A DNA stretch of 64,000 bases from Escherichia coli (GTDB lineage: Bacteria > Pseudomonadota > Gammaproteobacteria > Enterobacterales > Enterobacteriaceae), in assembly GCF_044647545.1 (NCBI RefSeq), contig NZ_CP172818.1. The stretch is one strand, 5' to 3'. Position 1 is the stretch's first letter, and each line of letters begins with the position of its first letter. The notes under the pieces are model-generated. The model was not told the DNA's origin. It did not search any database and worked only from the letters and a program-made list of their open reading frames with translations. Positions 55,626 through 59,497 of the stretch are shown one piece after another. Both the position numbers and the translations under genes were made by a program.

Positions 55626-56960
55626 TCATTCCTTGAAATCGTTTGCATCCAGCTCGTGTCGGGAAAGCAGTTTATAAAATTCTGTCCGGTTGCGCCCCGC
55701 CATTCTCGCCGCGTGGGTGACGTTGCCTTTGGTAATTTGCAGCAGCTTACGCAAATAGTTGAGTTCAAACTGATTACGTGCCTCAACAAAGGTTGGCAGC
55801 GCCGTATTTTCACCCTCCAGCGCCTGCTCTACTAATGCATCACTAATCACCGGAGATGAGGTCAGCGCCACGCACTGTTCAATCACGTTGACCAACTGGC
55901 GTACATTACCCGGCCAGCTAGCGGTCATCAGGCGTTTCATTGCATCGGTGGAGAACGCGCGGACAAACGGTTTATGTCGCTCTGCCGCCTGGCGCAACAG
56001 GTGATTTGCCAGTAGCGGAATGTCTTCTGTGCGCTCTGCCAGAGCCGGAATTTTCAGGCTGACAACGTTGAGGCGGTAATAGAGATCTTCACGGAATTCC
56101 CCGCGCGCCATCGCTTTTGGCAGGTCGCGGTGAGTGGCGGAAATAATCCGCACGTCGATATCAATATCGCGGTTACTGCCCAGCGGGCGCACTTTACGCT
56201 CCTGCAACACGCGCAGCAGTTTGACCTGCAACGGTGCAGGCATATCGCCAATCTCATCGAGAAATAGCGTACCGCCTTCCGCCGCCTGGAATAAACCTTC
56301 GCGATTGCTGACAGCGCCAGTAAACGCACCACGCGCATGACCAAACAGCTCCGACTCCAGCAATTGCTCGGGCAATGCGCCACAGTTAATAGCAATAAAT
56401 GGTTTGCTGTTGCGCGGGCTGGCGTTGTGGATAGCCTGGGCGAAAATCTCTTTCCCGGTGCCGCTCTGGCCGTTAATCAAAACGCTAACGTCTGATTGCG
56501 CCACCAGCCGCGCCTGTTCCAGCAAACGCAGCATCAGCGGGCTGCGGGTGACAATCGCCTCGCGCCAGCGTTCGTCGGTGGCTGGCGCGGATTGTTCCAG
56601 CGCATCGTCAATTGCCTGATATAGCGCGTCTTTATCGACAGGCTTGGTGAGAAAACTGAACACGCCCTGCTGTGTTGCAGCAACGGCATCGGGAATAGAA
56701 CCATGCGCGGTAAGAATAATTACTGGCATTCCCGGCTGCACTTTCTGGATTTCAGCAAACAGCTGCATACCGTCCATTTCATCCATCCGCAGGTCGCTGA
56801 TGACTAAATCTACTTTTTCGCGATTCAGTACCCGTAATCCTTCAGCGCCACTTTCCGCCGTGACCACGCTGTAGCCTTCGCTGGTCAGGCGCAGGCCAAG
56901 CAGTTTCAGCAATCCCGGATCGTCATCGACCAATAATAAATGCGCAGGTTTATGGCTCAT
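55626..56960 (-). CDS. glrR: Sigma54-dependent two-component response regulator GlrR (QseF)
   Basis: Track ORF 55626..57062 contains [25 protein letters not shown]... after a 34-codon extension; 444 aa; receiver, AAA+ (GESGTGKE-like, GAFTGA) and HTH domains. Confidence 0.9.
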
Positions 56961-57663
56961 CAGGAGTGACCTCATCGGTGGATGGCGCGGGCTTTTCACT
57001 CTCGTGCGGCGTATCCGGCGAGAAATTTCCAGCCGGTTTGCGGGTCGAGAGCTGGCGTTCAATATCGGTCAGGTTTTCCAGCTTGCGGGTAGTGAGTTCC
57101 AGTTGCTGTTGTAGAACGTGATGTTGCTGGCGCAAAGTATCCAGCTCGCTGTCGCTGGACTGCTGGAGTTTACTGTAGCGTTGGCGCTCTTCCGCCAGTT
57201 GCAGTTGCAGCGCCTGACCGTCGCGCCAGAGTTGATACAGAGGGCGAACCTGTGCCGGGATCTCGGTACTTAGCGCATCAATGCGCGCGACCAGCTGGCG
57301 GCGCTCATACGGCGTAATTTTGGCGTCGGCGAGCAAAATCCCTTGTTTAAAGGTATTTTGCCAGCTGCCGTCGTCATATTGGCGGGCTTGCTGACGCGAC
57401 TGCGCAGGCATTAAACGATCAGCACAATCCATCGCCCGCAGCCAGTAAAGCGGATTGGTTTCGGTTGATTTACCTTGCAGCGCCCAGATGTCGCTACATT
57501 CAGTAGAAAGATAGTCAGCCAGTTGATAAACCGGAATTTTTTCTTCTGCTGGCGTATCAATGGCTGGCTTATTGTGACTCTGCACGCAACCCAGCAATGC
57601 CAGACATGGCAGCCCTGCCAGCCACAGCCGTCGGGGCAATAATCGTTGAAAAATGTGTCGCAT
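56950..57663 (-). CDS. qseG: Outer-membrane lipoprotein QseG (YfhG)
   Basis: Track ORF 56950..57669; start taken at MRHIFQRLLPRRLWLAGLPCLALLGCVQS (lipobox LLGC). 3' end overlaps the glrR start by 11 nt. Confidence 0.85.
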   Translation of the reverse strand: MRHIFQRLLPRRLWLAGLPCLALLGCVQSHNKPAIDTPAEEKIPVYQLADYLSTECSDIWALQGKSTETNPLYWLRAMDCADRLMPAQSRQQARQYDDGSWQNTFKQGILLADAKITPYERRQLVARIDALSTEIPAQVRPLYQLWRDGQALQLQLAEERQRYSKLQQSSDSELDTLRQQHHVLQQQLELTTRKLENLTDIERQLSTRKPAGNFSPDTPHESEKPAPSTDEVTPDEP

Positions 57664-57827
57664 ATTCACCAGACTTAAAGCCTATCCCAGTGGGCGTAAT
57701 TGTTGCAGGCAGTTTGGACATGGACAGCGCGGAGAAACCGGAGCGTACATGTCGTACGTGAAGATTTCGAGCACTGCCCGGGGCCAAACTGGCAAATAAA
57801 ATAGCCTGATGGGATAGGCTGTTAGCA

Positions 57828-59255
57828 TTATTTCGTGTTTTTCGACGACGGTAATTCAATGCGGAAACAAACATCTTGCCCGCTCTCGTCGACCAGATAC
57901 AGTTCCCCTTGCATACGGCGAATACAATCCCTGGCAATGCTTAATCCCAGACCGCTGCCCTTCACCGCCCCTTTTCGCTGGTGGCTTCCCTGAAAAAAGG
58001 GTTCGAAGATCATGGCGCGTTCCTCTTGCGGAATGGGCGTGCCTGTATTGATGACATCAATATAAACCCGCGCACCATGTAAACTGCTGCGAAGGCAAAT
58101 GTTACCGGATTCAGCCCCGTAGTGCACCGCATTGGAGTAAAGATTATCCAGTACGCTCATCAGCAGCATTGGCTCCGCCAGGCAAGCTGTTGCTTTGAGA
58201 TCAACGTCGGTATGCATCATTTTAGCCCGTGCGGGCAGGCTATGAGCAGAAACTACTGTCTCCACCAGCGGTGCTAACTCAACATTCTCCAGTTCCACCG
58301 CACTGTCCGCTTGTTTACGGTTGTAATCAAGCAGTTGTTCGATCAGTTTTTGCAAATTGCGGCTGCTGCTATCAAGGATGCTCACCACCTCTTTTTGCTC
58401 GGGCGTAAGCGGCCCGACAACCTGGTCAGCCAGTAATTCAGTGCCCTCGCGCATACTCGCCAGCGGGGTTTTTAATTCATGAGATAAATGTCTTAAAAAT
58501 TGATGGCGTTGGGATTCCAGCCATGACAGGCGCTCACTTAACCAAAGAATACGTTGCCCAACCGAGCGTAACTCGCTCGGTCCACTGAACGAGACGCTAT
58601 TGCCCAGAGAACGCCCTTCCCCCAGCCGGTTGATCATGCGCTCGATATTTTTCACCGGCCCGATAATCATCCTCGTGAAAAGTAGCACCATCACCAGACT
58701 CACCAGAAATAGCACCAGCGATTGCCAACCAAAATATTGCCCACGTTCGGCGATTTCACGCTGAAGTTGCTGCCCACGAGAGAACACCACTGTGCGCGTG
58801 GCCTGCACCATTTCGGTATTGGCACTGGCAAAGGCTTCCAGACGCGCGGCGGCAGCAGCATCGGGACCGCTGTTGTTACACTGAAGTTGAGCCAGATTAT
58901 TCAAATCCTGACGTAATGCCTGGTAGAGTTTATCGTCCGGCAGCACGCCTGCGTGGGCATCGAGCATTTCGCTATAACGCTTGCGCTGGCTTTGATAAAC
59001 CTTCGCAAGCGTAGGGTCGTCCAGCACGCAATACTGACGGTAGCTGCGCTCCATTTCCAGTGCCGCGTTGGTCATCGCTTCACTGCGCCGGGCATCAATA
59101 AGCGTAGTGCGGTTAACCAGCGCCGCCTGATCGCTAAGCGCATTCAGGCTTTGCCAGGCTTGCCATGCCAGCACCAACAGGGGTAGCAGAATCAGCAAAA
59201 ATGCCAGCATTACCAGTTGTCGTAATGAGCGGGGAAAAACGGGCCAGCGTTTCAA
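57828..59255 (-). CDS. glrK: Sensor histidine kinase GlrK (QseE)
   Basis: Track ORF 57828..59318 extends upstream into the glmY terminator. Probable start is a TTG at 59253-59255 reading (M)KRWPVFPRSLRQLVMLAFLLILLP..., giving 475 aa; HAMP, HisKA (SHELKTPL) and HATPase domains. Confidence 0.85.
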   Translation of the reverse strand: MKRWPVFPRSLRQLVMLAFLLILLPLLVLAWQAWQSLNALSDQAALVNRTTLIDARRSEAMTNAALEMERSYRQYCVLDDPTLAKVYQSQRKRYSEMLDAHAGVLPDDKLYQALRQDLNNLAQLQCNNSGPDAAAAARLEAFASANTEMVQATRTVVFSRGQQLQREIAERGQYFGWQSLVLFLVSLVMVLLFTRMIIGPVKNIERMINRLGEGRSLGNSVSFSGPSELRSVGQRILWLSERLSWLESQRHQFLRHLSHELKTPLASMREGTELLADQVVGPLTPEQKEVVSILDSSSRNLQKLIEQLLDYNRKQADSAVELENVELAPLVETVVSAHSLPARAKMMHTDVDLKATACLAEPMLLMSVLDNLYSNAVHYGAESGNICLRSSLHGARVYIDVINTGTPIPQEERAMIFEPFFQGSHQRKGAVKGSGLGLSIARDCIRRMQGELYLVDESGQDVCFRIELPSSKNTK

Positions 59256-59311: not shown

Positions 59312-59497
59312 ACAACAAAGCCGGGAATTACCCGGCTTTGTTATGGAATAAGGCGGTGCCTAACTCGACGTTTCGCCCGAGGGTTGATATAGCTACGCTG
59401 ATATCAGAAGTTGGACGGCAGGCACCTTGTTGTGCGTCATTCGAATTTTATGTAGCACGTCCCGAAGGGGCTGACATAAGTCGGTGAATGAGCCACT
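59312..59497 (-). ncRNA. glmY: GlmY small RNA (regulator of the GlmZ/glmS cascade)
   Basis: Minus strand reads AGTGGCTCATTCACCGACTTATGTCAGCCCCTTCGGGACGTGCTACATAAAATTCGAATGACG...AAAGCCGGGTAATTCCCGGCTTTGTTGT, matching GlmY as I recall it; intrinsic terminator hairpin at the 3' end. Not in the ORF track. Confidence 0.8.

Follow-up and report, generated by a model that had tools for sequence, protein, structure and literature searches.

The window analysed here is a stretch of 64,000 nucleotides of Escherichia coli DNA (contig NZ_CP172818.1) that carries on its minus strand, in this order, glmY, glrK (qseE), qseG, glrR (qseF) and glnB. The glmY gene (59350-59497, minus strand; Rfam GlmY RF00128, 145 bits) is located immediately upstream of glrK, as expected for this locus. 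The coding sequences of glrK (57828-59255, with its TAA stop codon at 57828-57830) and qseG (56950-57663) are both on the minus strand; the qseG AUG is found at 57661-57663 and its Shine-Dalgarno sequence, GGUGA, at 57666-57670. They are separated by a spacer of 164 nt that corresponds to positions 2689507-2689670 of K-12. The genes qseEGF have been described as one operon with a sigma-70 promoter upstream of qseE, and in E. coli QseG reportedly limits the activity of QseF (PMC6075780).

The original prediction for this spacer was a 10-bp inverted repeat, GCCTATCCCA (57680-57689) and TGGGATAGGC (57810-57819), and both 10-mers are present at those positions. Actually, the perfect complement is 11 bp long (57679-57689 and 57810-57820) and extends imperfectly to 16 nt with 88% identity (57674-57689 and 57810-57825). 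The local hairpin described at the second copy is also real (57803-57820, followed by ATTTTATTTG on the minus strand); in the RNA it reads AGCCU-AUCCCAUC-AGGCU, then AUUUUAUUUG, a weakly terminator-like arrangement with a predicted energy of -6.0 kcal/mol. The frequency expected by chance had been put at about 1 in 100, close to what we obtained, 16 of 3000 shuffled spacers (~0.5%) having a perfect inverted repeat of at least 10 bp. Compared with its own reverse complement, the spacer was 62% self-complementary over 155 nt (E=1e-9), and the minimum free energy of its RNA was -65.3 kcal/mol (z=-4.7), with none of 200 shuffles being equally stable. This palindrome covering the whole spacer, together with its recurrence as a repeat family, is stronger evidence than the 10-bp repeat alone. 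The long-range stem that had been proposed is predicted to pair, as the base of an imperfect hairpin of ~60 pairs across the insert with its apex, CGUAC-GACAU-GUACG, at 57744-57758 of the minus strand (RNA folding), but the two functions offered for it, hiding of the qseG ribosome-binding region and binding of a protein, found no support. Folding energies are alike for the two strands (-63.6 vs -62.3 kcal/mol), so that strand-specific folding, sought as a sign of selection at the RNA level, was not found. In Rfam no family reached the gathering threshold for the spacer, the only match being a sub-threshold one of the Xanthomonas sRNA sX9 to the inner hairpin (57693-57759, minus strand; 32.3 bits, with the threshold at 44; E=0.005), which is probably a generic hairpin resemblance.

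The limits of the insert could be established from two Escherichia-like assemblies that carry an empty site (SRR31341456 and ERR3179213). In them the sequence AATAATGC-TAA-GTCTGGTG is uninterrupted, exactly so in L143 (QseG 90% identical), where the empty site AATAATGCTAAGTCTGGTGAATATG reads ...GAAATAATGCTAAGTCTGGTGAATATG..., and nearly so in L016 (QseG 79% identical), reading ...AAATAAAGCTAAGTCTGGTGAATATG. The filled allele of E. coli reads ...AAATAATGC-TAA-[144 bp]-TAA-GTCTGGTGAATATG, i.e. AATAATGC-TAA-GTCTGG has become AATAATGC-TAA-[element]-TAA-GTCTGG. From this comparison of empty and filled alleles the body of the element, one long imperfect palindrome, was placed at 57678-57821 (144 bp, minus strand) and the two copies of the duplicated TAA target at 57822-57824 (upstream) and 57675-57677 (downstream), both limits agreeing with the flanks in the family alignments. 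With both TAA copies the element covers 57675-57824, or 2689519-2689667 in K-12, and leaves the qseG Shine-Dalgarno just outside. In the orientation of the operon the 5' terminal inverted repeat, CAGCCTATCCCA (consensus GAGCCTATCCCA), occupies 57810-57821 and the 3' one, TGGGATAGGCTT, occupies 57678-57689. They contain respectively the second and first 10-mers, so the 10/11-bp repeat makes up the core of the element's terminal inverted repeats. These 12-nt ends match at 11 of 12 positions in the glrK-qseG copy, and they co-vary across 42 copies. Where the element is missing the two genes are close together, at 1 nt in Salmonella enterica, 23 nt in C. koseri and 17 nt in K. oxytoca. The original prediction had been made to depend on conservation in orthologous spacers, and on this point it fails, the repeat being absent in these three species and in the two Escherichia-like genomes. 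In Escherichia sp. E4930 the element is present between glrK and qseG.

The 164-nt spacer has matches at 5 places in the median E. coli genome and at as many as 8 in some. The other copies lie in ycbX-rlmL, pyrH-frr, pheM-pheS and ucpA-cysP, and in some strains also in glnA-glnL. Among the loci examined, K-12 yielded five copies, 2 of them forward and 3 reverse (the one near pheM is at 1798985-1799131). Of the four K-12 copies that lie between genes of the same strand, two are on the strand of the genes and two on the opposite one. The E. coli records with a best match of at least 90% identity numbered 5426, about the number of complete genomes, and since the copies seen at other loci aligned at 89% or less, these matches correspond to the glrK-qseG copy. 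Judging from them, the glrK-qseG element is present in essentially every complete E. coli genome, i.e. fixed. Copies at 76-88% identity were detected in plasmids of Klebsiella, Citrobacter and Pantoea and in a Salmonella record listed as a plasmid in PLSDB, and Enterobacter plasmids carry copies of the family too; across Enterobacterales the repeat is borne by chromosomes as well as by plasmids. Furthermore, at least 120 stretches across Enterobacterales matched a degenerate pattern of 28 positions, in Yersinia, Serratia, Photorhabdus, Pectobacterium, Erwinia, Pantoea, Klebsiella, Raoultella, Citrobacter, Enterobacter, Kosakonia, Buttiauxella, Leminorella and others. When nine copies were combined into a profile, it retrieved 157 distinct copies in the loci examined, 66 of them full length and mostly of 147-150 bp; with the nhmmer profile of family copies the glrK-qseG body scored 153 bits (E=2.5e-45).

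The edges of the family are sharp in the alignment of copies, with the end consensus T(T/A)A-GAGCCTATCCCA...TGGGATAGGCTC-T(T/A)A. The flanking trinucleotides are direct and not inverted repeats, TTA/TTA in 26 cases and TAA/TAA in 16, so that the two flanks agree in 42 of 60 copies (Fisher p=6e-11); one clean case of discordance, TTA/TAA, was seen. The long hairpin is also kept. Across 42 non-identical copies 95% of the cells were paired, and compensatory double changes were found in 15 of 34 pairs (for example, columns 10/144 change from AU to GC in 13 copies, and columns 60/92 from AU to CG in 13). In the helix formed by the terminal repeats, helix 1 of the family, 8 of the 9 pairs had compensatory changes. 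None of 500 shuffles reached the observed values, and controls in which the alignment was slid were paired at 29-43%. A small hairpin is conserved at each terminus of the family element, the subterminal one at 57803-57820 being 90% paired across the 42 copies. The covariation that was to be looked for is present, among paralogous copies of a mobile repeat, but not among orthologues of a regulatory site. The equal folding of both strands and the presence of copies in both orientations relative to host genes point to a palindrome that is mobile at the level of DNA, and not to a regulatory structure specific to a host mRNA.

All these features indicate that the repeat between glrK and qseG very probably represents the ends of a fossil transposable element of the miniature inverted-repeat type (MITE), 144 bp long and inserted within the Escherichia lineage. 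Its body is below ~300 bp and has no transposase gene and no conserved peptide; it has terminal inverted repeats, a target-site duplication, precise empty sites and multiple dispersed copies. A transposase supplied in trans would have recognised the terminal inverted repeats and put the element into the TAA between the glrK stop and the qseG ribosome-binding site, duplicating the target. This would have happened within the genus Escherichia, the insertion being now fixed in E. coli, and it would have pushed apart two genes that formerly abutted. In the empty allele the ATG sharing bases with the glrK stop (TAATG) could serve as the qseG start, and in E. coli qseG would now be read from the downstream AUG, which is preceded by a Shine-Dalgarno of its own. 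Since a single transcript covers the operon, the element would be carried in the mRNA, folded into a long hairpin complete in itself, with the qseG ribosome-binding site lying beyond it. In our judgement, whatever it does to expression is a by-product (the loss of a tight coupling, perhaps an altered stability) rather than a purpose-built switch, and the insertion would be functionally near-neutral, with a secondary role in coupling, processing or stability being possible. The 1.15 Mb of loci examined contained no autonomous insertion sequence whose ends matched those of the element. A 1.6-kb pair of inverted repeats in locus L136 was considered as autonomous partner and discarded, as it encloses phosphotransferase-system sugar-transport and other host genes.

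What looked like a long-range inverted repeat specific to a virulence-related two-component operon would thus be corrected to the ends of a fossil mobile element, which for this reason should not be followed up as a riboregulator particular to this operon. It is a long-known kind of fossil miniature transposon and an ordinary feature. The empty-site alleles fix its exact boundaries and the T(T/A)A target duplication. In addition, the insertion provides a natural experiment in which two previously overlapping genes were parted, and it may contribute to QseG being limiting in E. coli.

The element can probably be identified with the RSA repeat of E. coli, a name that was matched by description and not by sequence, on the basis of length, copy number, strand split, palindromic nature and the older literature. 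RSA was reportedly listed by Blattner et al. in 1997 as a repeat of 152 bp with 6 copies, and is said to be included by Bachellier et al. in 1999 among the short palindromic enterobacterial repeats. The original prediction knew of no described element here, which is probably wrong, since the sequence fits RSA in K-12 by length, copy number and strand split. In the GenBank annotation of K-12, RSA is entered six times at 150/151 bp, with 2 entries forward and 4 complement (PMC5172473, Table 1); the present element has 150 bp with both TAA copies, and of the six copies thus expected in K-12 five were located (up to 8 exist in other strains), with a compatible split of 2/3. Both are intergenic and palindromic, and in this comparison by description we know of no difference. 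Within the reference list of PMC3751351, RSA figures as a dispersed enterobacterial intergenic element, and a work cited there (Bachellier & Hofnung 1996) gives it also as the 'BEE95' family. The diagnosis as a MITE stands apart from the name RSA. In the RefSeq record of K-12 (NC_000913.3) there are no repeat features at the five copies of the family, nor at the REP found in glnA-glnL; the E. coli annotation in RefSeq no longer marks this repeat family, and spacers such as this one keep looking mysterious as a result.

Other known repeats were compared. Identity with ERIC (IRU) was suspected from the apex of the hairpin and rejected by alignment both to the consensus and to a genuine copy. Against the 127-bp ERIC consensus 31 of 500 shuffles aligned as well as the element did, and the family profile gave ERIC 6.7 bits, whereas a genuine ERIC copy, from ahpC-ahpF, reached E=7e-25 against that consensus when tested in this way. 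ERIC and the present element are both long imperfect palindromes, intergenic or intra-operon, co-transcribed, widespread in Enterobacterales and with longer variants carrying internal insertions, but the termini differ (ERIC starts TATAC...) and so does the copy number, a 44-nt ERIC core being found at 10 places in the median E. coli genome. The apex itself (57739-57760, TCACGTACGACATGTACGCTCC) resembles the ERIC centre (TCACTTACTTATGTAAGCTCC) at 17 of 22 positions, the only place where the profile matches the ERIC consensus; this likeness, which is not significant alone, could reflect distant kinship or convergence. YPAL/RU-2 of Yersinia and RU-3 are also small palindromic enterobacterial repeats, of 103-168 bp and with fortuitous open frames (Delihas 2007, PMC2759123), but they were discarded because there is no sequence similarity beyond 8-mers. 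The Correia/NEMIS elements of Neisseria and other bacterial MITEs share with the present one the terminal inverted repeats, the short A/T-rich target duplication, the lack of a transposase gene, the insertion beside or between genes and the hairpin in the mRNA; processing by RNase III has been demonstrated for Correia (PMC10969869). They are however unrelated in sequence and host, and Correia duplicates TA instead of T(T/A)A. Finally, REP/BIME are likewise intergenic palindromic repeats carried in transcripts, but the REP units are of 20-40 bp, very numerous and leave no T(T/A)A duplication. REP are mobilised by a different class of transposase.

The function put forward originally, a dedicated cis-regulatory RNA stem in which long-range pairing hides the qseG ribosome-binding region and controls its translation, is very improbable. 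The hairpin is predicted to be very stable and its base lies 3-4 nt upstream of the Shine-Dalgarno, whose unpaired probability in partition-function folding was slightly lower with the element (0.04-0.08) than without it (0.07-0.31). Yet both the Shine-Dalgarno and the AUG are outside the stem, on its 3' side, and their minimum-free-energy pairing was identical when the element was removed in silico, so the predicted accessibility is about unchanged and sequestration by the stem is not supported. Furthermore, the sequence is wholly absent from the orthologous operons of Salmonella, Citrobacter, Klebsiella and the two Escherichia-like genomes, and it appears at many unrelated loci in both orientations. 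A binding site at the DNA level, with the two arms as half-sites for GlrR/QseF, IHF or another regulator, deserves slightly less credit still. Dimeric DNA-binding proteins typically recognise inverted repeats, and a transposase would itself have bound these ends, but half-sites 120 bp apart that are the termini of a mobile repeat, and that are missing from the orthologous operons, argue against this second proposal. By eye, neither a QseF-type TGT-N12-ACA motif nor a convincing IHF consensus was seen in the element, and a consensus scan of the operon strand of the spacer found no sigma-70-like promoter. That the inverted repeat arose by chance and has no meaning is practically negligible as an explanation. 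The ~0.5% of shuffled spacers with one 10-bp inverted repeat speak for it, but the whole spacer is palindromic and more than 150 copies exist with conserved ends, and this family evidence refutes it.

More room, although still on the unlikely side, should be given to an exaptation of the RNA, in which the long hairpin, or the 5' subterminal hairpin with its U-run, acts as a partial terminator, an RNase III or RNase E site or a barrier that affects stability. If so, glrK would be uncoupled from qseG-glrR-glnB and the low level of QseG would be partly set by the element. The terminator-like motif at 57803-57820, followed by AUUUUAUUUG, and the long imperfect duplex, a substrate of the RNase III type, are compatible with such a role. 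RNase III is known to cut a REP hairpin inside the sRNA GlnZ (bioRxiv 10.1101/2022.04.01.486790), ERIC and Correia elements affect mRNA decay (PMC10969869), and the reported limitation of QseF activity by QseG in E. coli (PMC6075780) fits as well. So does the destruction by the insertion of an overlapping stop/start junction. The fixation in essentially all E. coli, with the hairpin preserved at this place, leaves room for a secondary function. Against it, the small hairpin is weak, with a stem of 5 pairs, -6 kcal/mol and an interrupted U-run, and neither strand folds better than the other. The Term-seq tables examined (Adams 2021) list no 3' end in the spacer, in an operon that is very weakly expressed, the only one near glrK being that of GlmY. 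The RNase III sites that have been mapped close to pheM and within ahpC-ahpF are outside the repeat copies of those places, and two links to the enzyme were dropped accordingly: the Gordon 2017 site at 1799278 is upstream of pheM and outside the copy at 1798985-1799131, and the site at 639695 is outside the ERIC copy of ahpC-ahpF. The ERIC copy in that spacer (K-12 639513-639629) has 78% identity to the consensus (E=7e-25), and the RNase III site is in a second, separate hairpin downstream of it.

Returning to the insertion of a MITE, its consequences for the reading of qseG deserve some attention. On the minus strand an open frame of 48 codons (57682-57828) runs through the element, from an ATG (57826-57828) that overlaps the glrK stop (TAATG) to a UAG stop at 57682-57684. 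In the empty allele of L143 the ATG in TAATG is the called start of a qseG of 243 aa, and by this comparison the frame in E. coli appears to be the remnant of an ancestral upstream qseG start. The insertion clearly parted this ATG from the remainder of qseG. The encoded peptide is not conserved and the reading frame differs between lineages; in others, an indel of 1 nt moves the frame started at TAATG to a different one that is still open. Of the family copies, 30-45% are open in each frame on the operon strand, and 58-59 of 59 are closed in all three frames on the opposite strand. The frame is weak evidence for function because ~40% of the copies are open in any given frame on this strand. 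It is also conceivable, although quite improbable, that the insertion rewired qseG translation in such a way that E. coli now depends on the element. The ancestral TAATG overlap would have coupled qseG to glrK, and the frame of 48-50 codons, in two different frames depending on the lineage, ends 8-13 nt before the qseG Shine-Dalgarno, so that ribosomes leaving glrK could melt the hairpin and pass to qseG. A fossil transposon would then set a low and limiting level of QseG, tuning QseE/QseF-GlmY signalling.

Some other members of the family have features of their own. One plasmid copy is found, identical, on many plasmids of Klebsiella, Citrobacter, Enterobacter and E. coli (locus L002, 2497-2646, and L011), and therefore the repeat has spread horizontally as a passenger. 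In L002 it is flanked by an acyltransferase gene, beyond which comes a pagP-like gene, and by a gene that is called an MFS transporter in that record and an RND efflux permease in others; mer genes are close. There is also a longer subfamily, of about 206-214 bp, with an insertion of ~60 bp formed by two short palindromes near the apex of the hairpin. Its flanks are intact, TTA/TTA or TAA/TAA (L009 1497-1708, and also L026, L027, L031, L075 and L132), and its hosts are Salmonella, Citrobacter, Klebsiella, Pantoea and a soil metagenome-assembled genome. It recalls the internal-insertion variants described for ERIC.

Lastly, the copies in glnA-glnL lie in the glnA 3'UTR, ~43 nt past the glnA stop, in E. 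coli STEC639 (L006, 1503-1646) and E. whittamii (L111, 1238-1383). The same spacer of K-12 (4056340-4056624, L139) has a REP instead, at another position and inside the sRNA GlnZ, i.e. REP occupies in K-12 the spacer where other Escherichia strains carry the present family. Homologues of GlnZ have been grouped into classes by 'insertions' (bioRxiv 10.1101/2022.04.01.486790), and a copy of the family in glnA-glnL may account for one E. coli GlnZ variant.
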